Below are positions 5,648 to 49,541 of a stretch of DNA of 64,000 nt, piece after piece. Numbering within the stretch: the stretch's first letter is position 1; the number at the start of each line of letters is the position of its first letter. A program made the position numbers and the translations under genes. The stretch lies in assembly GCF_000027125.1 (NCBI RefSeq), contig NC_017626.1; one strand, written 5' to 3'. The stretch comes from Escherichia coli 042. GTDB lineage: Bacteria; Pseudomonadota; Gammaproteobacteria; Enterobacterales; Enterobacteriaceae. Below the pieces are notes generated by a model. It worked only from the letters and a program-made list of their open reading frames with translations, had not been told where the DNA came from and did no database searches.

Positions 5648-6223
5648 CTACGGCAGTGCTGGCCATTCAATATCCTGTGCAGTTGACGTATCAACACGGT
5701 TCAGCAATACCCGATACTTTTTCCATGCTTCCAGCAACGAGATTTCTTCCTCCGTTGCAATTTCCAGATCTGCAGCATCCTGAAGCGGCGCAATATGCTC
5801 ACTGGCTACCTGCATCAGGTTGTTTTTTGTTTCTTCCGCCTCCCGGATCCGGAACAGTTTTTCTGCTTCCGTATCCTTCACCCAGGCTGTGCCGTTCCAC
5901 TTCTGAAACTCCCCTTCCGGCGATAACCAGGTAACATTTTCCGGTAACGGACCGAGTTCAGAAATAAATAACGCGTCGCCGGAAGCCACGTCATAGACGG
6001 TTTTTCCCCGATGATCTTCAACGAGATGCCACGATGCCTCATCACTGTTGAAAACAGCCACGAAGCCTGCCGGAATATCTGGCGGTGCAATATCGGTACT
6101 GTTTGCTGGCAGACCTGTATGAGGCGGAATATATGCGTCACCTTCACCAATAAATTCATTAGTTCCGGCCAGCAGATTATAAATTTTTATGGTCTGTGGT
6201 TGTTCACTCATTCTGAATGCCAT
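5648..6223 (-). CDS. tfaQ: tail fibre assembly protein (Tfa)
   Basis: 191-aa ORF immediately downstream of and overlapping stf; Tfa-like sequence. Confidence 0.85.
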
Positions 6224-9919: not shown

Positions 9920-12900
9920 TCAACGAATACTGATGCCGGAAGCGGCTTTTTTGGTCACAATCACCGTACAGTCGGTGATATTACCTGCCCACTGATTGCC
10001 TTTATGGAAAACCTTAAACTCCAGAGTGACGCTTCCCCTGCCACTCGGCATATCAATAACCGCACTGTAGCTACCGGGAATGGCCCCTTTAGTTTCTCTG
10101 GATGCGATTAATACACCGTTTTGGCGAACTTCAAAACCATAACCCGTGTATCTTGTACCTCCCGGGTTATTACCACTTCCCGGATCGCTATACGCTATTC
10201 CGTTAAAGATAATGGGCGGAATAATGATTTGACGGTCAAAGTTATGATCATCGCTTATGGTGACTGTAACCGTCCCGTTTGGTGTTTCCGTGTTACCCCA
10301 CGTACCAGCCTGTTTCGGAAATGATTTGGATACAGCTTTAACGAAATCCCCTCTGACCTGAGTCGCCTCCAGCATGCCCTTAATCGTACAGTTTTCATTT
10401 ACCGTGACATTGTTGAGCGTCCCGGCGTTCGCATTCACACTGCCACTGATATCCGCATTTTTAGCGGTCAGCTTTCCGTCTGATGTCAGGGAAAATACCG
10501 GTGGATTTCCACCGCTGGTAATGGTGGGGGCCGTCAGGCGCTTCAGGAACACGTCGTTCATGAATATCTGGTTGCCCTGCGCCACAAACATCGGCGTTTC
10601 ATTCCCGTTTGCCGGATCAATAAACGCGATACGATTGGCGGCAACCAGAAACTGGCTCAGTTTGCCTTCCTCTGTATCCTCCATGCTGAGGCCAATACCC
10701 GCGACATAATGTTTGCCGTCTTTGGTCTGCTCAATTTTGACGCCCCACATGGCATTCCACTTATCGTTAGCATCCTTCCACTCTTTCGAAAACTGCTCCA
10801 GTCTGCTGGCGTTATCCTCCGTCAGGTCGACTTTTTCCAGCAGCTCTTTACCGAGATGGGATTCGGTTATCAGGCCTTTGAAAAAATCCAGGTAACCTTC
10901 GGCATCATCGCTCGCCCGACCAACAGCCTCCACGAATGCCGATTTGCCAACGGTGTTCACACTGCGAACGTAAAAATAATAATTATGGCCCGGCCTGATA
11001 TTGATACTGGCGGCTATCCAGTACAGCGCCGTGCCAAGATAGCGTGCTGTGGTTTCAACCTGCCTGATATCCGCAATCCGCTTTTCCGAGAACCAGAACT
11101 CAAACTGTACCGTCGGGTCATAAACCGCAAGATGCGGCGTGGCGGTTATCTGAAAATAGCCCGGCGTCAGCTCAATCCGCGACGGCGCTGCCGGTGCGGC
11201 AATCCGGAACGATACCGACGCCGGATCGCCCTGCTGCTCCCACGCATTTACTGCCCGGACTGTCAGCCTGTAGTTCCCCAGAGCCAGTTGTGTGAAGCGG
11301 TAAGTGGTTTCCGTCGTCCGGGCCGTGCTGACCAGCCGCTCACTGCCGTCATCCGCTGCCACGGTCAGGCGAAGCATGAAACTCACGCCCTTCACCACCT
11401 TCGGCGTGTCCCAGCGGGCCAGTACCTGATACTCCCCGCTGTCTGCGGTGACTTCGGCAGTCAGGTGCTGCACTGCTGGCGGCGTGACACCATTCACCGT
11501 GCCGCTCTGGTCGCCGTCAAAGTGCGCCCCGTTATCCACGATAGCTTCTTTTTCCGGTACATGCTGCACGGCGGTGATGGCATACGTGCCGTCGTCGTTC
11601 TCACGGATACTCACGCAGCGGAACAGGCGCTGGCGCAGCGTCGGCAGCTTCAGCCCCCATACGCTGTATCCGGCAACGCCGTCAGGAACACGGCTCACTT
11701 TTACCTTCACGCCGTCGGTGACGGACTGGACCTCCACGCTGACCGGATTGCCACTTCCGTCAACCAGGCTTATCAGCGTGGTACCGGAGGATGGCAGCGT
11801 GATTTCACGGTCGAGCGTCAGCGTCCGGGTCTGGCTGTTCACCGCCAGCACGCGCCCGCCGGTGCTGATCCCCGCATAGTCATCATCGCAGATTTCAATG
11901 ACATCGCCCGGCACATGGCGAAGCCCTTCCGCACCCACGCTGAAGTCCACGGTCTGCGTTTCCAGTAGTTCCGTTTTAATCAGCCACAGCCCGGCGCGGT
12001 GCGCCTGCCCCCGGCTGGTACAGCCAAAGGCATCCATCTTCGTGACGTTACGACCGTAACGGAGAATGGCCTGCGTATCTTCAACAAGCTCTGTCGCCGT
12101 CTCCCAGCCGTTATCCGGGTCAATCCAGTTCACCTCAACGGCATTATGACGGTCCTTCAGGGCACTGAAGCTGTAGCGGAACGGCGCGCCATCATCCGGC
12201 ATCACCACATTACTGCGGTTATAGGTCCACACCTTATCCGACGGTCGGTCCTGCACGAACGTCAGCGTCTGCCCGTTCCATACCGGCATACAGCGCATCG
12301 CCGAGCAGAAATCACTGAGAACATCCCACGCCTTGCGCTGTGTGGTCAGGTAGGCATTACAGGTGATGCGCGGCTCCGTGCCACCAAAGCCATCCGGCAC
12401 CGACTGGTCGCAATTCTGGCCGATGACATACAGCGCCCATTTGTCCACATCCGCCGCACCGAGACGCTTCCCCATGCCGTAGCGCGGATGGGTCAGCATA
12501 TCCCACAGACACCAGGCCATGTTGTTGCTGTATGCTGGCTTAAACGTTCCGTCCCAGATACCGCTGTATTGCCGCGTCTGCGGGTTATAGTTCGACGGCA
12601 CCTGCAGAATGCGCCCGCGAAGATGATAATTACGGCTCACCTGCTGGCTGCCGAACTGTTCCGAGTCCACCTGCACGCCGACCAGTGCCGTGTTCGGGTA
12701 GCACTGTTTCACATCGATGATTTCGGTGTATGACGACCAGAGCGTTTTGTTCTGCAGCTGGTCTGTGGTGCTGTCCGGCGTCATCCTGCGCATCCGGATA
12801 TTAAACGGGCGCGGCGGCAGGTTACCCACCACCACCGAGGCCAGATACTGCGAGGTGGTTTTGCCCTTAATGGTGATGTCTTTTTCCGTCACCCAGCCAC

Positions 12901-14065: not shown

Positions 14066-14706
14066 TTGTCGGTGTACCTCTCTCGTTTGCTCAGTTGTTC
14101 AGGAATATGGTGCAGCAGCTCGCCGTCGCCGCAGTAAATTGCGGCGTGATTCGGCACCGATGAACCAAAACAGCACAGCAGCACATCGCCCGGCTGTGCC
14201 GCTGACAACGGCACCTGATACAGCCCCGTCGCCTCCAGATTATCCAGATAGAGATTCTGGCCGTTACGCCACCAGTCATCCTCACGATGAAAGTCCGGCA
14301 TCTCAATCCCCGCCAGATGATAAGCATCCCGGAACAGTGTGTAACAGTCCGTCACACCGTGCTCAAAGCGCCGCCCGGTGAGATGCGGCACACAGCGGAA
14401 CTTATGAATCGTCCCCCGGCAGACCAGCCACCACGGCAAATCACTCTGCACCTGCAGCCGCCGGTCGGCCTCACTCAGCCAGGGCAGACCACCGGGGTGG
14501 CTGTGGACCAGCGCCACAATCTCACCCTGCATTTCTGCCTGCAGCCAGTCTTCCGGCGACATACGGAAATACGCCTCCGGCTCACCGGAGATATTCACGC
14601 AGGGGAAATATCTTTCCCCCTCCGGCGTGCTTACCACGAAGCCGCACGACTCCGCTGGCGCACATCGCCGGGCGTGCGCCAGAATCGCTGATTCTGTCTG
14701 TGTCAT
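13963..14706 (-). CDS. K: tail assembly protein K (NlpC/P60 plus JAB-like)
   Basis: 247-aa ORF; the start as I recall lambda annotation (199 aa) would be at 14562, the longer ORF abuts L. Confidence 0.9.
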   Translation of the reverse strand: MTQTESAILAHARRCAPAESCGFVVSTPEGERYFPCVNISGEPEAYFRMSPEDWLQAEMQGEIVALVHSHPGGLPWLSEADRRLQVQSDLPWWLVCRGTIHKFRCVPHLTGRRFEHGVTDCYTLFRDAYHLAGIEMPDFHREDDWWRNGQNLYLDNLEATGLYQVPLSAAQPGDVLLCCFGSSVPNHAAIYCGDGELLHHIPEQLSKRERYTDKWQRRTHSLWRHRAWRASAFTGIYNDLVAASTFV

Positions 14707-14711
14707 GGGAT

Positions 14712-15410
14712 TTACTGCGAAAGTTTGTTAATGGAAAGGAAGCCGCCAAAGTTGCCGACGTTATTGCGGAACTTACAACCGCTCAGGCATTTGCTGCATT
14801 TATCCTTCGTGATATCGGACGTTGGCTGGTCATATTCATCCGCGACAGCCGGACCGCTATAACCGCACTCGTCACCGCGATAGGTCCAGGTGCAGGTGTT
14901 GGCCAGCATGATACGTCCCGGAAAAACAGCGCCATCCGTTTCCGTCGGCGTGGACAGTACAAAGGAGGCACTCACCGCGCTCAGTTCGCTGCACTGCTCA
15001 ATGCGCCAGCGGCTGATCACCTCCTGCTCCGGATCGGCGCCACTGTTTCCGTTGACGAAGTTCACCGCATCCAGAAAACGGGCGTAAACCTTACGCCGGA
15101 CCACCGTTCCACCGACCAGACTCTGCAGATCTTCCGCCATCCCGGTGACCATACCGTACAGGTTAGAAACCGTCAGTGTGGGGCGCGTACTGGTGCCTTT
15201 GCCATTCAGTTCAAAACCACTCCCCTGAATGGGATACGGCTGATACTGTCGCCCCTGCCAGGTGACCGGCTCACCTTTTTCGTTCTGCTCATTACAGAAA
15301 AAATAACGTTCTCCACCGACCTCTGTCAGGTCGATTTCCCAGAGCACCACGCTGGCCGACTGCTCCGCACGGGTGCATTCATTCAGTGTTTCCTGCCGGA
15401 TATCCTGCAT
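14712..15410 (-). CDS. L: minor tail protein L
   Basis: 232 aa, same length as lambda gpL. Confidence 0.9.
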   Translation of the reverse strand: MQDIRQETLNECTRAEQSASVVLWEIDLTEVGGERYFFCNEQNEKGEPVTWQGRQYQPYPIQGSGFELNGKGTSTRPTLTVSNLYGMVTGMAEDLQSLVGGTVVRRKVYARFLDAVNFVNGNSGADPEQEVISRWRIEQCSELSAVSASFVLSTPTETDGAVFPGRIMLANTCTWTYRGDECGYSGPAVADEYDQPTSDITKDKCSKCLSGCKFRNNVGNFGGFLSINKLSQ

Positions 15411-15739
15411 CAGTTCACCACCTGTTCAAACTCTGCGCTGAACTCAACACGCAGCATACTGACCCGCGACGACCATTTTGCGCAGGTCACCTTTATCTGC
15501 CGCCACTCATAAGGCGGCGTCCACAGAAAGGCTTTCCAGCCCCCGTGCTCAGCCAGAAACGACTCCAGCGCCGTGGCCTCCCAACGGGGAACAGAAAGCG
15601 TCACGCTGTACGTTTTCAGGTCGGCATTCAGCCCGGCAGGCGCTCGCTGGGAATAGCCATCACCAAAGCGCACTTTCCTGACGGAAGGGGCCGAAGCCAC
15701 ATCCATACCGGGTTTCACTTTCCAGCGGAAGGTCTTCAT
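15410..15739 (-). CDS. M: minor tail protein M
   Basis: 109 aa, same length as lambda gpM. Confidence 0.9.
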   Translation of the reverse strand: MKTFRWKVKPGMDVASAPSVRKVRFGDGYSQRAPAGLNADLKTYSVTLSVPRWEATALESFLAEHGGWKAFLWTPPYEWRQIKVTCAKWSSRVSMLRVEFSAEFEQVVN

Positions 15740-18314
15740 CGTCCACCTCCGGAGAACAGACCACCATCGCGCATCTGTGCCTGAATTTCATCACGGGCAC
15801 CCTTGCGGGCCATGTCATACACTGCCTTCATCATCTGTGGACCTGGCAGACCATTCGTACCGTCGTTCTGAATCACCACGTGATTGTTCTGATTAAAATT
15901 AATGCCTTCAGCCCGCCGCATCTGCGCCGGACTTCCGGCACCGCCCACATAACCACCTTCCGCATAGCCCCGCATCAGGCGGTACAGGTTGCCGACACCA
16001 ATTCGGCTGGTTGCCTCCTTCGTGAAGACAAATTCACCACGGTGAACAATCCCCGCTGGCTCATATTTGCCGCCGGTTCCCGTAAATCCTCCGGTTGCAA
16101 AATGGAATTTCGCCGCAGCTGCCTGAATGGCTGTACCGCCTGATGCGGATGCGCCGCCACCAACAGCCCCGCCAATGGCGCTACCGATACTCCCGACAAT
16201 CCCCACCATTGCCTGCTTAAGCAGAATTTCTGTCATCATGGACAGCACGGAACGGGTGAAGCTGCGCCAGTTCTGCTCACTGCCGGTCAGCATCGCCGCC
16301 ATATTCTGCGCAATACCATCAAAGGTCTGCGTGGCTGCACTTTTAACCTGCGACATACTGTCCGTGGCGCTCTCTTCCCACTCACTCCAGCCGGACCTGA
16401 GGCCTGCCATCCAGCTCCCGCGAAGCTGGTCTTCAGCCGCCCAGGTCTTTTTCTGCTCTGACATGACGTTATTCAGCGCCAGCGAATTATCGCCATACTG
16501 TTCCTTCAGGCGCTGTTCTGTGGCTTCCCGCGCTGCCTGCCGGTCAGTAAGCCCCCGGTTTTTCGCCTCAATGGCTGCCCGTTTTGCCCGTTGTTGCTGT
16601 GCGAACTTATCCGCCTGCTGCGCCAGCGCGTTCAGGCGCTCCTGATACGTAACCTTGTCGCCAAGTGCAGCCAGCTGGCGTTTGTACTCCAGCGTCTCAT
16701 CTTTATGCGCCAGCAGGGATTTCTCCTGTGCGGACAGCTGGCGACGTTGCGCCGCCTCCTCCAGTACCGCGAACTGACTCTCCGCCTTCCACAAATCCCG
16801 GCGCTGCTGGCTGATTTTCTCATTTGCTCCGGCATGCTTCTCCAGCGTCCGGAGTTCAGCCTGAAGCGTCAGCAGGGCAGCATGAGCACTGTCTTCCTGA
16901 CGATCGCCCGCAGACACTTTCACGCCGGACTGTTTCGGCTTTTTCAGCGTCGCTTCATAATCCTTTTTCGCCGCCGCCATCAGCGTGTTGTAATCTGCCT
17001 GCAGGATTTTCCCGTCTTTCAGTGCCTTGTTCAGTTCTTCCTGACGGGCGGTATATTTCTCCAGCGGCGTCTGCAGGCGTTCGTAAGCCTTCTGCGCCTC
17101 TTCGGTATATTTCAGCCGTGATGCCTCAGACTCGGCCCAGTCCTTTGCTGCCATCTCTCTGGCCTTTTCAAGATCGGCCTGCAACGTGGCGGCTGAAAGC
17201 CCAAGTTGCGCATTCGCTCTGTCCTCCCATGCTCCCCGGAGATTGGCAAGAAATGCTGAGGTTTTACCGCGCCGGTGGCTTCGGCTCTGATACCACTGCC
17301 ATTTTTTGTCCGCCTCATCAAAAGCCTTTTCTGCTTTCTCCAGCATTCCCTGGGCAGTGTCCGGGCGACCAATATCCAGCACCGAATCCCACATGGATTT
17401 GAATGCCCGTGCTGTCCTGTCTGCCCAGGTCTCCAGCGTGCCCATGTTCTCTTTCAGGCGGCGGGTCTGGTCATCAAACCCTTTCGTTGCGGCCTCGTTC
17501 GCCGCCTGCAATGCCCCGGCCTCATCTCCGGAACGCTGCAACTGAGCAACATACGCAATCTGCTCCGCCGTCACGTTATGGAACTGACGTGCCATCGCTG
17601 TCAGTCCCGACGTCGGGTCTGTGGTCAGCTTCCCGAAGGCTTCAGCGACCTTGTCCACCTCCACGCCGGATGCAGAGGAGAAACGCGCCACACTCTGGCT
17701 GATCGCCTCAAACTGCTCACCACCACGCACACCGGCATTCACCAGCGCCGTCAGTGACTCGCTGGTCTGGTTAAACGTCAGCCCTGCCGCCTGCCCGGCT
17801 CTGGACAGGGCCAGAATACGATCTGCCGTCAGTCCCGCCTGATTGCCGGAAAGGACCAGCGTTTTGTTGAAATCGGACAGGGTTGAGTTGCCCTGATACC
17901 AGGCATACGCCAGCGCACCGGTCGCCACCGCCAGCGAGGTGGCCCCACCATCGGCAGGGTGATCGCACCGGCAAGCCCCCTGAACATGGGGATCATCCCG
18001 CCGAAGGAGTCCTTAACCTGACCACCCTGTTGCAGCAGGATCAGCCACGGACTTTGCCCGCCTGCAAGCTGCGTGGCCACGTCGGTGAACTGTGCAGGCA
18101 GCATACGCATGGCGGCTTTATACTGCCCGACGGAAATCCCCGCTTTCTGTGCAGCCAGCGCCTGTCGGCTCAGCGACTGTTCAACGACTGCCGCTGTTTT
18201 TTTCGCATCAGTTTCCGTACCGGAAAAATGACGCCTGACTCTGGCCATCTGCTCGTCAAATCTGGCCGCATCCAGACTCAAATCAACGACCAGATCGCCT
18301 ACCGGTTCAGCCAT
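15736..18314 (-). pseudogene. H: tail tape-measure protein H, interrupted by an apparent 1-nt deletion (frameshift)
   Basis: Two overlapping ORFs (17829..18314 N-terminal MAEPVGDLVVDLSLDAARF...; 15736..17928 remainder) both match lambda gpH as I remember it; frames switch after ...ITLPMVG near 17940. Confidence 0.8.
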
Positions 18315-18741
18315 ACCGGACTCCTCCTGCGATCCCTTCTGATACTGTCATCAGCATTACGTCATCCTCCGTCATGTCCGCCACATCCGGGGAAGCGGGG
18401 ATAACTTCATTCCCGTCCGGGCCAAAGCGGACACCTCCGGCAAGCCCTGCCGCTTTCTGCATCAGCACATCATCTTCAGGCTCTTCGTCAGCCTCGCGCC
18501 GGTTCAGCAGACTGAAATCCAGCGGATGCATATCCGGATCGCTGAAAAACAGGCTGAGTACGGTGTACGTCAGCCCGGAAAAGTGCATATCCAGCAGAAC
18601 ATCATGAAAATAATGGGTACTGTAAAAGCGGTGCCAGTCGGCATACTCCGTGGATGACATCCCGGCAAGCATGGCACGCCAGTCGGGTCGCCCCATCTCG
18701 CGCGCCAGTTTCAGGGCAAAACTCAGCTCACCGTCGAACAC
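18307..18741 (-). CDS. T: tail assembly chaperone T segment (made as G-T fusion by programmed -1 frameshift)
   Basis: ORF in the -1 frame relative to G starting at the slippery site; lambda G/GT arrangement. Confidence 0.8.
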   Translation of the reverse strand: MFDGELSFALKLAREMGRPDWRAMLAGMSSTEYADWHRFYSTHYFHDVLLDMHFSGLTYTVLSLFFSDPDMHPLDFSLLNRREADEEPEDDVLMQKAAGLAGGVRFGPDGNEVIPASPDVADMTEDDVMLMTVSEGIAGGVRYG

Positions 18742-19145
18742 TTTCCCGCAGAAACAGGCTCTGCGGGCCCGGCGTCCTCTGTCTGTTCAGGGGCATTATT
18801 CACCACAAACTCATACATACCAGACAGCCGGTACACCACGTTTTCAGCATGAGAAATTGCCTCCGTGGGCCAGGTGGTAAGCACTTCCTGCTCAATCTGT
18901 TTAACGGCTTCATTCATGGACGGCATCTGCGTCTTCTGCGGATGGTTATGCCACAGGGACATCGCCACCAGAAACGCGCCGGTTCTGATGGCGTCTTCCA
19001 CAGTAAACTTCCGGTTGCTGTCTGACTCCGCCTGTTCTGCCTGCCGTTTCATCAGGGCGAGATGCTCAATGCGCTGCAGGGCTGACAGTTCAGAAAGCGT
19101 GACGGTCACACCGTTATGTTCAAATGATTCGGTTTTCAGGAACAT
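18723..19145 (-). CDS. G: tail assembly chaperone G
   Basis: 140 aa, same length as lambda gpG. Confidence 0.9.
   Translation of the reverse strand: MFLKTESFEHNGVTVTLSELSALQRIEHLALMKRQAEQAESDSNRKFTVEDAIRTGAFLVAMSLWHNHPQKTQMPSMNEAVKQIEQEVLTTWPTEAISHAENVVYRLSGMYEFVVNNAPEQTEDAGPAEPVSAGKCSTVS
18741..18747 (-). other. programmed -1 ribosomal frameshift slippery heptamer G GGA AAG (G to G-T)
   Basis: Minus-strand GGGAAAG seven codons before the G stop; the -1 frame continues as KVFDGELSFALKLAREM... Confidence 0.8.
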
Positions 19146-24438: not shown

Positions 24439-26219
<1,781 letters not shown>

Positions 26220-30482: not shown

Positions 30483-30753
30483 GATGTTACCGTAGTATGT
30501 GAGTATCCATCGAATAGACACCAAGCAAAAAAGCTCCCGAAGGAGCCTTCATTTTCACTTTTTTAAATCCAACGACAGACGGCTGGCATTTAAGTATTGT
30601 GAAATATTATCAAATGTAATCATCATTGATTTACAAAAGATACATTTTGCCCCGAAAGGATTCATGTCAGAAACATCAAAAGATGATGTTCTATACTGGG
30701 AACCATGACAACACGGGCATCTAAAGTGAATATGGTTTGTAATATTGTCTACC

Positions 30754-30966
30754 TCAAAGCGCCACTACATGAACAGCGGCAGGACCTTTAGGTCCGTTCT
30801 CAATACCAAATTCAACTTCCTGATTCTCAGTTAATGTTTTGAAATCGTTGCTCTGAATTGCTGAGAAATGGACAAACACATCTTTGCTGCCATCTTTCGG
30901 CGTGATGAAACCAAAACCTTTTTCAGGGTTAAACCATTTCACTAAACCAGTCATTGTGTTAGACAT
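30754..30966 (-). CDS. cspI: cold-shock protein CspI
   Basis: 70-aa CSD protein [38 protein letters not shown]... Confidence 0.9.
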
Positions 30967-31328
30967 AATTATTACCTTTTGAAGAAATTAGCCCTTGGGC
31001 AGAATGGTCCGAAAAAAAATATCAGAGAGAAAAACCAACAAGGAAATCTCAAGAGGTACAAATAATAAAATTATAACAATGACTGCTTCAGATAAATTTG
31101 TAACAAACCAGAACACCATTAACGCATGATTAACCACCCATAGCAAGGATTACTTTTGTAAAGAAAAACACAGCAATGAAAGAATAGCTTTATTTATTAA
31201 TAAAACGTGTCATTCTGATTAAGACCTTTTATCTTACCCTTAAGATTTCAGGAATTTTGGCTCATGGAAGAGTCCTTTTTATTTAAATTTTACATTCCGC
31301 GATGTAAATGTTCCGATTTAATATTACC

Positions 31329-32244
<916 letters not shown>

Positions 32245-33250: not shown

Positions 33251-33529
33251 GATTGTGGTGCTTTTTGTGGGAGTCATCCACTTACGCACTTTGTTTTGCC
33301 ATGCCAGCAGTTAGCTTCTGCTGTAAAACTATTCATGCAGCAAACCTGCACTTCACCACAATGGTTAGCATACTTTTCCTGATTAAGATTTTGCCAAATA
33401 TGCTAGCCATTGTTTCATGTATTGGACCTCCTTACTTTTTATTAAAGAGATCCAATATTCACTACTCTGTCCGTATCTCTACTCAGGCATCAGCCTTCTT
33501 CGTTATCGTATACAGACGAGCGATGAATT

Positions 33530-33745
33530 TTAATCAGTAATGATGACATTTGCTGCTGCAGGACCTTTAGCACCACTCTCTATAGAGAAGGTAACCTTTT
33601 GACCTTCAAATAAGGTTCGATAATTATCATTCTGAATCGCAGAAAAATGCACAAACACATCTTTACTACCATCAACAGGAGAAATAAAGCCGAAACCTTT
33701 ATCAGCGTTAAACCATTTTACTAAACCAGTCATTTTATTTGACAT
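33530..33745 (-). CDS. cspB: cold-shock protein CspB
   Basis: 71-aa CSD protein [34 protein letters not shown]... Confidence 0.9.
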
Positions 33746-34045
33746 TCTACATTCCTTAACTTGAGCCTTTCGGCATAAATGGTTTGCATAACAGAAACGA
33801 CTTCGTACTTAATTGGAGAGACTCAAAGAAGGAATAAGTGAATAACACCTGAAATGAGAACTGCTTTAGTAAACTACTTCGTATATCGTCTGTTCTTCAA
33901 ACCGACGCAATCATTAACGCATAGTTGAACATATGAAGCAATGTTTATTTTAGACATCCAGCCATCTTCAACCCCATCAAAAAACTATAGCTTTCTTCAG
34001 GAACGTGTGTATAGTGCGCCAAGTTATCAGTATTAAGGAATTTTT

Positions 34046-38595: not shown

Positions 38596-38928
38596 ATGTC
38601 TGTCACAATTCAGGGAAATACCTCAACCGTTATTTCAAACAACTCCGCCCCGGAAGGAACATCAGAAATAGCCAAAATCACAAGACAAATTCAGGTGCTG
38701 ACTGAAAAGCTTGGGAAAATCTCATCGTAAGAGGGGATGACGACACAGCAGAAAAAAGAAATGGCTGCATTGGTACAGAAGCAAATTGAAAGCCTCTGGG
38801 CTCAACTGGAGCAGTTGTTAAGGCAGCAGGCAGAGAAAAAGAATGAAGACGCGACAGTTCAGCCTGATAAAAAAGAAGAGAAAAAAGACGATACAAATAC
38901 CGCTGGCACCATTGATATTTACGTCTAA
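38596..38928 (+). pseudogene. flxA: FlxA-like protein interrupted by in-frame TAA at codon 45
   Basis: MSVTIQGNTSTVISNNSAPEGTSEIAKITRQIQVLTEKLGKISS, stop, EG, then ORF-track 38737..38928 MTTQQKKEMAALVQ... in the same frame. Confidence 0.7.
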
Positions 38929-39299: not shown

Positions 39300-40760
39300 C
39301 CAGAAACGCGACTTAAGAATCTACCCTATGAATGGATATGCACTCAACCGAATCGATCTTGGTTTCAATCTTTTTTATCGGGATCAGGCTTCTTTTTAGG
39401 TAACTTCGGGGGCTTAACTTGCTGATGACTTTGCGTTCGGCGCGTAAGCCAGGGATGGTCAGCTTTAGGTTTAACATAGTATTTTGAGCGTAAATCAATA
39501 CGGGCATTATCCACTCGTTCATGGACACTCTTTTCATCATCCAGTGGTATAGGCTCCGGGCCATCAACATACTTTTCCCAGCCCAGCGCTTTCCCGTCAT
39601 ACAGAACGTTAATTTCACCGTCAAAGTTCTCGCATACAGTAACAACCGAATGCCTAAGTCGATATCCCCGGCCCTCACTGCGTACCTGAAACGCACTGCT
39701 TTTGTACTGGAAAGTGAGATTTTTAGACAGAACGCGCTTCGCCTGTAGGCTGAAGATATAACCCAGTTCCTCTTCAGAATGGTGCACATCAAGATGAGCA
39801 TTATCAGTAGTACGAGGCGACGTAGCGAACCGGTTGTTATAGGCTTCAATAAAGGTCGGCAACCATGCATTTGCTGTTTCAATATCACTGATATTCTGAA
39901 GCCGCATTTCTTTGACCAGCCTGTCCTGTAGTGTCTGATTGGCGCGCTCTACCCGCCCTTTTGCCTGCGGGCTGTTGGCATGGATTGGCTCGATGCCCAG
40001 TGTCTTTATCGCACGAGTGAACTGGGTCAGCTCACCTTCCCGCTCTGGGTTATTTACCCTGAATATACTGTGTCTATCAGAGTAGAGAGCGAGCGGTACG
40101 CCATGATCATTAAGGTAACCCCGGAGGGTTTCCATGTAAGCCCGGGTTGTTTCAGCAGGCACAAAACGCAACGCCATCAACGCACTGGTGGCATCATCAA
40201 TGAAAACGATCAGTGTACATCTGGGGCCTCGATTTTCAAACCAGTCATGAGGTGAGCCATCAATCTGGATCAGTTCACCGTAAGATGGTCGTCGCATGCG
40301 GCGTTGATATATACGGGCAATTTTACGACGGCGTTCACGCCATAACCCCTCTTCTACCATCCACTTTCTGAGAGTTTCAACGGATAAAGATAAACCGTGT
40401 ATCTCGCGCAATTTTTCGCACGCAAACGTAGGTCCAAAATCAGCGTAACGGCCTTTGAGGAGTGAAATTACTGTTGCTCTGAATTCAGTAGAAAAGGAAT
40501 TATTAGGACGCTTTCCACGTCGGTGGGAAACCAGACCAGAAGGCCCTTCATTTCTATACCGTTGCACCAGACGTTTAACCTGCCGAATAGAAATGCCAAT
40601 GCGTGCCGCAGCTTGTTCCTGAATAATCTGAAGTCGGTGGAGTTCCTTATGACTCATCGTAACAGTCTCTTTGATCATGAAAAATCCCCCAGAGAATTGT
40701 CTGGGGACATTTTAGAATGGTTCAAAGGGGACATTACAGCTTGGTGTTAACAATAGCCTG
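39300..40760. mobile_element. insertion sequence (boundaries approximate) carrying a DDE transposase
   Basis: Single 437-aa transposase gene in a ~1.45 kb block that interrupts prophage gene order between flxA and the replication genes; terminal inverted repeats not resolved by eye. Confidence 0.5.
39365..40678 (-). CDS. DDE (rve-fold) transposase with N-terminal HTH, IS481/ISNCY-like
   Basis: 437-aa ORF MIKETVTMSHKELHRLQIIQEQAAARIGISIRQVKRLVQRYRNEG... with integrase-core-like region. Confidence 0.8.
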   Translation of the reverse strand: MIKETVTMSHKELHRLQIIQEQAAARIGISIRQVKRLVQRYRNEGPSGLVSHRRGKRPNNSFSTEFRATVISLLKGRYADFGPTFACEKLREIHGLSLSVETLRKWMVEEGLWRERRRKIARIYQRRMRRPSYGELIQIDGSPHDWFENRGPRCTLIVFIDDATSALMALRFVPAETTRAYMETLRGYLNDHGVPLALYSDRHSIFRVNNPEREGELTQFTRAIKTLGIEPIHANSPQAKGRVERANQTLQDRLVKEMRLQNISDIETANAWLPTFIEAYNNRFATSPRTTDNAHLDVHHSEEELGYIFSLQAKRVLSKNLTFQYKSSAFQVRSEGRGYRLRHSVVTVCENFDGEINVLYDGKALGWEKYVDGPEPIPLDDEKSVHERVDNARIDLRSKYYVKPKADHPWLTRRTQSHQQVKPPKLPKKKPDPDKKD

Positions 40761-41012
40761 CTTCTCCGTGCCTTTCGGCACGTAAGAGGCTAACCTACAT
40801 GTGTCTAGCATGAAATTGGCCTCAGATTAATGTTAAGCGTCTTGCAGGACGCGTAATGTTAACTGGGGCTTTTCTCTATCTGCCGTTGGTGTCCATGCCC
40901 GAGGCAGATAGCCTCAAGCACCCGCAGTCATTCTACTTAACTAAGATTTCCCCGCAAACCGTTTTTGTCCAGCACAGTAAATATCCAACTAAACCAATGG
41001 AGTTCGCTGTAT

Positions 41013-46373: not shown

Positions 46374-46432
46374 TTTCTGGTGACGTTTGGCGGTATCAGT
46401 TTTACTCCGTGACTGCTCTGCCGCCCTTTTTA
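46374..46432 (+). ncRNA. dicF: DicF small regulatory RNA (cell-division inhibitor, ftsZ antisense)
   Basis: tttctggtgacgtttggcggtatcagttttactccgtgactgctctgccgccc followed by TTTTT; matches DicF as I remember it; lies between ydfC and dicB. Confidence 0.8.
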
Positions 46433-46977: not shown

Positions 46978-47069
46978 AACAGTTCCGTAATAAATATCCG
47001 GTTTCATTCTTATATGCCAGCAATGGCAGGGATTTGTTCATCCTTAAATCTGTCATGAGGTTAAAACAA

Positions 47070-49541
47070 ATGAGTAAAGTCTTTATTTGCGCCGCTATTC
47101 CTGACGAACTGGCAACAAGGGAAGAAGGCGCTGTGGCTGTAGCCACAGCCATTGAAGCTGGCGACGAACGCCGTGCTCGAGCAAAATTTCACTGGCAATT
47201 CCTGGAACATTATCCGGCTGCTCAGGACTGCGCTTATAAATTTATTGTCTGCGAGGATAAACCTGGCATACCCCGCCCTGCCCTCGATTCATGGGATGCT
47301 GAATATATGCAGGAAAACCGCTGGGATGAGGAGTCTGCTTCTTTTGTCCCGGTTGAGACTGAATCCGATCCGATGAACGTCACTTTTGACAAGCTGGCCC
47401 CTGAAGTACAGAACGCTGTCATGGTTAAGTTCGACACATGTGAAAACATCACCGTTGATATGGTTATTAGCGCACAGGAATTGTTGCAGGAAGACATGGC
47501 AACATTCGACGGACATATCGTTGAAGCGTTGATGAAAATGCCAGAAGTTAACGCCATGTATCCGGAGCTTAAGTTGCACGCCATTGGGTGGGTTAAGCAT
47601 AAATGTATTCCTGGTGCTAAATGGCCCGAAATTCAGGCAGAGATGCGCATCTGGAAAAAACGTCGCGAAGGTGAACGCAAGGAAACCGGAAAATACACGT
47701 CTGTTGTTGATCTCGCCCGCGCCAGAGCCAATCAACAGTACACTGAAAATTCAACAGGAAAAATCAGCCCGGTCATTGCTGCCATTCATCGCGAATACAA
47801 GCAGACATGGAAAACACTGGATGACGAACTGGCCTACGCTCTCTGGCCTAGTGATGTGGATGCCGGAAACATTGACGGCAGCATCCATCGCTGGGCAAAA
47901 AAAGAAGTTATCGACAACGACCGCGAAGACTGGAAGCGTATCTCGGCATCAATGCGCAAACAGCCTGATGCCCTTCGCTACGACCGCCAAACTATTTTTG
48001 GCCTTGTCCGTGAGCGTCCGATCGACATTCACAAAGATCCCGTAGCACTGAACAAATATATCTGCGAATACCTGACGACAAAGGGCGTGTTTGAGAATGA
48101 AGAAACAGACCTGGGCACTGTTGATGTTCTCCAGTCATCAGAAACACAAACTGATGCAGTGGAAACTGAGGTATCTGATATCCCAAAAAATGAAACCGCG
48201 CCGGAAGCTGAACCATCTGTAGAGCGTGAGGGGCCGTTCTATTTCCTCTTCGCAGATAAGGACGGAGAAAAATACGGTCGCGCAAACAAACTCTCTGGTC
48301 TGGATAAGGCACTGGCTGCTGGCGCCACTGAAATCACAAAAGAAGAATATTTTGCCCGAAAAAATGGCACATACACGGGCTTACCGCAAAATGTAGATAC
48401 CGCTGAAGATTCAGAACAACCAGAGCCGATAAAAGTTACCGCTGACGAAGTAAACAAAATTATGCAGGCAGCCAATATCAGCCAGCCTGACGCCGATAAG
48501 TTGCTTGCTGCATCACGTGGTGAATTTGTTGAAGGGATTAGTGACCCGAATGATCCGAAATGGGTTAAGGGGCTCCAGACCCGCGATTCTGTGAACCAGA
48601 ACCAGCATGAATCGGAACGGAACTACCAAAAAGCGGAACAAAACAGTCCAAATGCGTTACAAAACGAGCCAGAAACGAAACAGCCTGAACCAGTAGCGCA
48701 ACAGGAAGTGGAAAAAGTCTGCACCGCCTGCGGTCAGACCGGCGGCGGCAACTGCCCTGATTGTGGCGCGGTGATGGGCGACGCAACATACCAAGAAACA
48801 TTCGATGAAGAGTATCAGGTTGAAGTTCAGGAAGATGATCCGGAGGAAATGGAAGGCGCTGAACATCCACACAAGGAGAACACTGGCGGCAATCAGCATC
48901 ACAATAGCGATAATGAAACTGGCGAGACGGCAGATCACCCAATTAAGGTGAACGGTCATCACGAAATCACATCCACCAGCAGGACGTGTGACCATCTAAT
49001 GATCGACCTTGAAACCATGGGAAAAAATCCTGATGCCCCGATCATCTCAATAGGTGCAATATTTTTCGATCCGCAAACCGGAGATATGGGACCGGAATTT
49101 AGTAAGACTATCGATCTGGAAACTGCTGGCGGAGTCATTGATCGGGACACCATTAAATGGTGGCTTAAGCAATTACGCGAAGCGCAATCTGCCATTATGA
49201 CCGATGAAATCCCGTTAGATGATGCACTGTTACAATTGCGAGAATTTATCGACGAAAACTCCGGTGAATTTTTTGTTCAGGTTTGGGGAAATGGAGCCAA
49301 CTTCGACAACACGATTTTGCGCCGTTCATACGAACGGCAGGGGATCCCCTGCCCGTGGCGTTACTACAACGATCGCGATGTACGCACAATCGTTGAGCTG
49401 GGGAAAGCCATAGACTTCGATGCCAGAACGGCTATTCCATTCGAAGGTGAGCGCCATAATGCACTTGATGACGCCCGTTACCAGGCAAAATACGTTTCAG
49501 TTATCTGGCAAAAACTGATCCCGAGTCAGGCTGATTCTTAA
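47070..49541 (+). CDS. ydfE: YdfE-family prophage protein, full length, with central zinc ribbon and C-terminal DEDDh (DnaQ-like) 3'-5' exonuclease domain
   Basis: ORF 47034..49541; start chosen at MSKVFICAAIPDELATRE...; CxxC...CxxC (CTACGQTGGGNCPDCG); exonuclease motifs DLETMG, GANFDNTIL, HNALDDARYQA. Confidence 0.8.
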   Translation: MSKVFICAAIPDELATREEGAVAVATAIEAGDERRARAKFHWQFLEHYPAAQDCAYKFIVCEDKPGIPRPALDSWDAEYMQENRWDEESASFVPVETESDPMNVTFDKLAPEVQNAVMVKFDTCENITVDMVISAQELLQEDMATFDGHIVEALMKMPEVNAMYPELKLHAIGWVKHKCIPGAKWPEIQAEMRIWKKRREGERKETGKYTSVVDLARARANQQYTENSTGKISPVIAAIHREYKQTWKTLDDELAYALWPSDVDAGNIDGSIHRWAKKEVIDNDREDWKRISASMRKQPDALRYDRQTIFGLVRERPIDIHKDPVALNKYICEYLTTKGVFENEETDLGTVDVLQSSETQTDAVETEVSDIPKNETAPEAEPSVEREGPFYFLFADKDGEKYGRANKLSGLDKALAAGATEITKEEYFARKNGTYTGLPQNVDTAEDSEQPEPIKVTADEVNKIMQAANISQPDADKLLAASRGEFVEGISDPNDPKWVKGLQTRDSVNQNQHESERNYQKAEQNSPNALQNEPETKQPEPVAQQEVEKVCTACGQTGGGNCPDCGAVMGDATYQETFDEEYQVEVQEDDPEEMEGAEHPHKENTGGNQHHNSDNETGETADHPIKVNGHHEITSTSRTCDHLMIDLETMGKNPDAPIISIGAIFFDPQTGDMGPEFSKTIDLETAGGVIDRDTIKWWLKQLREAQSAIMTDEIPLDDALLQLREFIDENSGEFFVQVWGNGANFDNTILRRSYERQGIPCPWRYYNDRDVRTIVELGKAIDFDARTAIPFEGERHNALDDARYQAKYVSVIWQKLIPSQADS

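Follow-up and report, generated by a model that had tools for sequence, protein, structure and literature searches.

Lambda phage defective in gene H, the tape-measure gene, form no tails. The protein encoded by H, gpH, is 853 aa long, determines tail length and occurs at six copies per tail; it carries a hydrophobic segment at residues 116-140, and its C-terminal residues 818-849 bind gpI (PMC12617516). Frameshift-type defects are common among E. coli lambdoid prophages, and the lambda-like Sp prophages of O157 Sakai have morphogenesis and other genes damaged by frame-shift mutations, deletions and IS insertions, defects that can be complemented in trans by co-resident prophages (PMC2669165). 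In the herpesvirus thymidine kinase gene, a 1-nt indel in a G run is accompanied by compensatory frameshifting, an arrangement described as a 'savior indel' (PMC5009743).

The window, the 64,000-nt stretch of E. coli DNA analysed here, contains a lambdoid prophage of full length, inserted at the Qin site (ydfJ' ... int/rspB). The left end of the window (ydfI, ydfJ', ydfK, pinQ and tfaQ) and its right end (int, rspBA, ynfA-H and dmsD) align with E. coli chromosomes (99.3-99.8% identity). Between both ends the prophage genes are arranged in the order Nu1-A-W-B-C-D-E-FI-FII-Z-U-V-G-T-H-M-L-K-I-J-lom-stf-tfa, along with early, lysis and accessory genes of the Qin type. The best RefSeq complete E. 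coli genome reaches no more than 98.8% identity across the 20 kb of the structural region, and thus the lineage of this strain is missing from that collection.

The insertion site is the one used by Qin of K-12 and by the full-length ydfJ-site relatives (loci L004 and L005), and dicA/dicC, DicF, dicB, relBE, hokD/sok, cspB/F/I, flxA, pinQ and tfaQ are common to all of them. The head and tail module, which K-12 Qin no longer has, is kept in the window prophage. Compared with the intact full-length relatives, the window prophage has a frameshift in H, a deletion in Rz, and stop codons in flxA and gpW. The H defect is of the same kind as those catalogued in the O157 Sakai prophages, although the prophage itself is a different one, at another site and much less decayed. 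Gathering-level Rfam matches were identified for the DicF sRNA, the sok antitoxin RNA, two cspA-type thermoregulator leaders (cspI and cspB) and the IS009 RNA; located at 46375..46426, 40752..40923, 30727..31112, 33514..33906 and 5682..5880, they are standard Qin-prophage cargo. An 835-aa ORF that starts with TTG (47034..49541) lies beside xis and int; it matches exodeoxyribonuclease VIII (RecE) only in part, over residues 258-635 (281 bits, against a curated cut-off of 1269), and may be a divergent or remodelled recE-like gene.

The features around H are as follows.

18723..19145, minus strand: tail assembly chaperone G, 140 aa, intact; Pfam Phage_TAC_2 in identical loci
18307..18741, minus strand: T frame of the G-T chaperone, 144 aa, intact
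15736..18314, minus strand: H tape-measure pseudogene, 2,579 nt (2,580 nt and 859 codons when repaired)
17829..18314, minus strand: 5' ORF, with gpH residues 1-124 native, then 37 out-of-frame residues (PPRWRWRP...AIRRD) and a stop; Pfam TMP_2
17943..17946, minus strand: G4 run (C4 on the plus strand), site of the 1-nt deletion; G5 in intact alleles
15736..17928, minus strand: 3' ORF, 730 aa, in the native H frame (residues 130-859); Pfam TMP_2 and Tape_meas_lam_C
15410..15739, minus strand: tail gene M, 109 aa, intact, directly downstream of H with a 4-nt overlap

The gene order G/T-H-M, L, K, I, J was confirmed by tblastn with the proteins of L004. The heptamer GGGAAAG of the lambda G-T programmed -1 frameshift is kept at the G/T overlap (18741..18747, minus strand), just upstream of H.

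A tape-measure gene of the lambda H type is divided between two overlapping minus-strand ORFs, 17829..18314 (161 aa) and 15736..17928 (730 aa). The original prediction had proposed exactly these two ORFs, as jointly resembling lambda gpH and as separated by the loss of 1 nt from a short G/C run; our comparisons bear it out. The coding strand across the break reads CCG ATG GTG GGG CCA CCT CGC, in which the G4 run comprises the last base of the Val123 codon and the Gly124 codon. The shorter ORF is translated as MAEPVGDLVV...LPMVGPPRWRWRP... and ends at a stop codon at 17829..17831. The longer one begins MATGALAYAWYQGNSTLSDF at an internal GTG. The SD-like motif closest to this GTG, GGTGGGG, sits 14 nt upstream, so separate translation of the 730-aa ORF is unlikely; its product, even if made, would be without the N-terminus. 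The H protein of L004 aligns to the window in two frames (residues 1-126 and 124-859), and both fragments have a PF06791 match, the 3' fragment having PF09718 as well.

Addition of one G in silico produces a single ORF of 2,580 nt encoding 859 aa, with zero internal stops. That an extra base would rejoin the gene had been anticipated, but at a length of about 853 aa; the restored protein is longer because this allele exceeds lambda gpH by 6 aa. Repaired H is identical to lambda gpH at 767 of 861 positions (89%), the intact allele of this family diverging from the 853-aa lambda protein at residues ~323-395 and near the C-terminus. The likeness to lambda H (J02459 10542..13103) extends to its position within V-G-T-H-M-L-K-I-J, to the G-T slippery site and to the local sequence. 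The lambda nucleotide sequence, to which the prediction had pointed as a check, reads CCGATGGTGGGGGCCACC, with five G at the matching offset 360 of H, and five G are also present in all three intact close relatives (L001, L004 and L005). The window has one G fewer, and hence 161-aa and 730-aa ORFs in place of one. In its repaired form H has the full-length similarity and the Pfam TMP_2 and Tape_meas_lam_C domains of gpH-type tape-measure proteins, but in the window no uninterrupted ORF spans the whole ruler. Since the ORF is split at G4, the window H is a pseudogene of the gpH family and not a functional member.

The four-G allele is rare. Across 3,700 matching RefSeq E. coli records (6,561 places), the 81 nt around the site were never matched exactly. 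Identity bands alone could miss a four-G allele paired with a nearby SNP, and 60 records sampled evenly down the ranking were therefore added; all 60 span the query length plus one base. The best matches among 122 matching phage records also have the extra base. The exact 34-nt four-G pattern has zero matches in GTDB species representatives and in IMG/VR, which shows only that the allele is rare, its carriers having surfaced through exact-protein look-ups. The exact sequence of the repaired 859-aa protein occurs on at least 1000 public contigs, and the intact protein is the ancestral state; L004 and L005, at the same insertion site, have an uninterrupted H of 2,580 nt. Because G4 sets the window deterministically apart from a very well-sampled gene, chance is not at issue.

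Carriers of the four-G allele were identified in nine other public loci (L006-L014), and every locus fetched has G4. They include assemblies 99.8-100% identical to the window from NCBI and ENA and four from raw reads (Logan). By exact-protein look-up, the 161-aa product is on 5-6 public contigs and the 730-aa product on 36 contigs (73 index blocks); products of the allele are already public as separate proteins (VED35681.1 and GHL05210.1). The four Logan assemblies (L008-L011), each of a different sequencing run, match the window at 100% identity over 932-1,529 nt. L012 (GCA_918361235.1) differs from the window by 5 SNPs and 0 gaps over 22,193 nt. L013 (LR134246.1, NCTC, PacBio) has 2 SNPs and 13 single-base indels, 11 of them insertions, typical of the lower consensus quality of that record. 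L014, an ENA SPAdes contig with coverage of 148, has 42 clustered SNPs and 0 gaps. These SNPs are packed into J and K (10600..12650 and 14540..14700), a pattern typical of short recombination tracts from other lambdoid prophages rather than of point mutation.

Members of this clade are identical to the window across H and its flanks and elsewhere differ at ~1-2 x 10^-4 per site outside recombination tracts. The absence of differences across H and its flanks implies that the frameshift predates their divergence. In all, the four-G state occurs on three haplotype backgrounds, those of the window clade, L006 (Logan SRR10286122) and L007 (GCA_016586775.1). In the latter two, G5 is changed to G4 in H at locus position ~10,369, and both haplotypes are ~97% identical to the window. 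L006 is L004-like, is otherwise intact and looks clean. L007 is L001-like, but many genes are split in its assembly (A, C, Z, K and J are all broken), and G4 may be an error there. Every four-G haplotype has a near-identical intact relative, and thus these haplotypes represent shallow, recent events; the occurrence of G4 on further haplotypes suggests recurrent slippage at the G5 run. A literature search on the carriers LR134246, GCA_900636275, GCA_918361235, GCA_016586775, SRR10286122 and ERR12361486 found no papers.

We conclude that the deletion is very probably a genuine, vertically inherited -1 frameshift (G5 to G4) that inactivates a lambda-H-type gene of a Qin-site lambdoid prophage. 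The lesion is present in the window, is missing from intact relatives and is found in independent assemblies of the same clade, and the prophage has other lesions. The original prediction had left the choice between an inactivating mutation and a sequencing artefact undecided. A strain that is truly G5, with one G lost by homopolymer miscall or consensus polishing, could be suspected because the site is a homopolymer, because the four-G call of L007 comes from the assembly with the many split genes and because L013 shows its 13 single-base indels. The errors in L013 are, however, mostly insertions (11 of 13) rather than deletions, and the same deletion recurs in at least seven other data sets of the window clade generated by different pipelines (Logan k-mer, SPAdes and NCBI). 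It is thus reproduced in independent data (L008-L014, along with the 36 contigs carrying the 730-aa product). H has the sole coding-region indel of the window relative to the closest relatives L002-L005, with no companion gene-breaking homopolymer indels; the other 1-nt differences are in A/T runs outside the genes checked. Nor is the site a systematic error hot spot, given that the four-G allele has no exact match among the 3,700 matching RefSeq records, which cover all platforms. An artefact is therefore most improbable, and the identical deletion in independent assemblies of related strains and of raw reads identifies it as a genuine inherited mutation.

A real deletion might still be something other than simple loss of function. 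Rare -1 slippage on G_GGG, with tRNA-Gly moving from GGG to the overlapping GGG, would restore the exact wild-type gpH: after GUG GGG, as read directly from the sequence, a -1 shift gives GCC ACC UCG (Ala-Thr-Ser, the wild-type residues), and the 730-codon frame downstream is still open. Only ~6 copies of gpH are needed per tail, so a trickle could suffice for some tails, and compensatory frameshifting on G runs has a precedent (PMC5009743). The likeness to herpesvirus thymidine kinase, a 1-nt G-run indel correctable in principle by low-level ribosomal slippage, is an analogy only: the run is 4 nt rather than 7-8 and is not conserved, and no selection for leakiness is seen. The site lacks an X XXY YYZ heptamer, and the codon in its A site is neither hungry nor a stop; G GGG CCA permits a P-site slip only. 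In a fold of 111 nt of RNA around the run the z-score is -1.1, no better than shuffled sequence, and the sole hairpin abuts the run without a 5-9 nt spacer, so that no frameshift stimulator is supported. The open downstream frame is uninformative, as the clade is identical to the window across H and its flanks, and the gpW nonsense codon of the window leaves this prophage defective anyway. A leaky pseudogene is thus very unlikely, and it is highly doubtful that the four-G allele is not null in a wider sense, with the slip yielding low-level gpH and a trickle of tailed particles and the three haplotypes reflecting a mutational hot spot that makes 'throttled' prophages. Folds of wild-type and mutant DNA 40-mers have z-scores of ~0 and do not support a hairpin-driven deletion hot spot. 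Known contingency tracts are far longer than 4-5 nt. A functional role for the arrangement (programmed frameshifting, an H gene split by design or a phase-variable switch) could be read into the three haplotype backgrounds and into the programmed -1 frameshift of the adjoining G-T genes, but is almost certainly wrong. The allele has no exact match in the 3,700 RefSeq records, the GTDB representatives or IMG/VR, and each four-G haplotype has its near-identical intact relative. Absence from RefSeq complete E. coli genomes argues against a conserved or programmed frameshift; neither the 60 sampled records nor the best matches of the 122 phage records share a shifted or two-frame arrangement, and the run has no slippery heptamer accompanied by a stimulator 5-9 nt downstream or by an SD-like element upstream. 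The tract is only 4 or 5 nt long, and is G5 in every RefSeq record sampled, rather than long and length-polymorphic. Lastly, the frameshift could be real and yet have been fixed because lost virion production benefits the host, rather than by neutral drift. The lesion is fixed in a clade that has diverged as little as noted above, and the identical lesion is found on other haplotypes, but a tail defect would stop neither induction nor lysis (holin and lysozyme are still present), so the host would gain little. Mutation bias by itself would make a homopolymer lesion recur, and the substitutions are too few for any selection test. Such selected disarming is improbable, and we retain the reading of an inherited, inactivating frameshift.

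Other lesions were identified in this prophage. Codon 3 of W, the head-tail joining gene (68 aa), is a nonsense codon (ATG ACG TGA compared with ATG ACG CGA; 26215..26217, minus strand, with A at 26217 on the plus strand). This codon is CGA in all 11 comparator loci, six of them of the window's clade, and the stop is private to the window. It is a second morphogenetic lesion and may be either a genuine mutation of recent origin or an erroneous base call. Compared with L004 and L005, the window lacks 108 bp at 31722/31723. This deletion takes away the first 33 codons of the spanin gene Rz (rzpQ) and the final 2 codons of the lysozyme gene rrrQ, whose product is now 182 aa long with a new C-terminus. 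The 182-aa lysozyme is on at least 24 public contigs, and thus the deletion is common to the clade. In flxA, GAA (as in L004) is changed to TAA at codon 45 (38728..38730). This stop is common to the clade members L016-L018, in which gene calling gives flxA as two separate products of 44 aa and 63 aa. A 437-aa ORF for an ISNCY-family (ISEsa1-like) transposase (39365..40678) lies in the early or nin-like region and is annotated in L004 and L005 as an incomplete IS1202-like/ISEsa1-family element; it indicates that this prophage family is already degraded outside the structural module.

Apart from H and W, the remaining head and tail genes are full-length in the window, and they are intact in the clade members read, save for extra indels in the lower-quality L013. 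Decay is therefore not far advanced. Progressive decay of gene K within the clade was considered and rejected: the 199-aa K of L014 is an alternative start call on an intact ORF, and the break in K of L013 stems from one inserted base, as is typical of this record of lower quality.

The simplest mechanism would be replication slippage at the five-G run, dropping one G. Ribosomes initiating at the H ATG would then synthesize 124 native and 37 out-of-frame residues before the stop at 17829..17831. The truncation would fall within the segment corresponding to the hydrophobic residues 116-140 of lambda gpH, and the product would be without ~86% of the ruler and without the entire C-terminal part that binds the tip. 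With no complete tape measure, neither the initiation of tails nor the determination of their length would be expected to succeed. Because gpH sets tail length and H-defective phage make no tails, tailless heads are expected here; induction would yield at most DNA-filled tailless heads and zero infectious particles from this prophage alone. The H lesion would represent one decay step of an already grounded prophage. A co-resident lambdoid prophage with an intact H could complement the defect in trans. This is conceivable because E. coli genomes with this H segment hold a median of 2 copies (up to 7), and because the defects of Sakai prophages are complemented in this way.

A gpH-family frameshift pseudogene in a partly decayed lambdoid prophage is of an already known kind, and its relevance beyond annotation is slight. 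H at 15736..18314 calls for annotation as a single frameshifted pseudogene instead of two proteins. The case also illustrates that the authenticity of a homopolymer indel can be decided without the original reads, through look-up of the exact products in independent assemblies, and the clade-specific four-G allele could be used as a lineage marker. The H frameshift is ordinary prophage decay, with no new mechanism and nothing outside known biology. The prophage is to be scored as defective for tail formation: as predicted from its genes, and unless complemented, it most likely lacks a tape measure and yields neither tails nor infectious particles.
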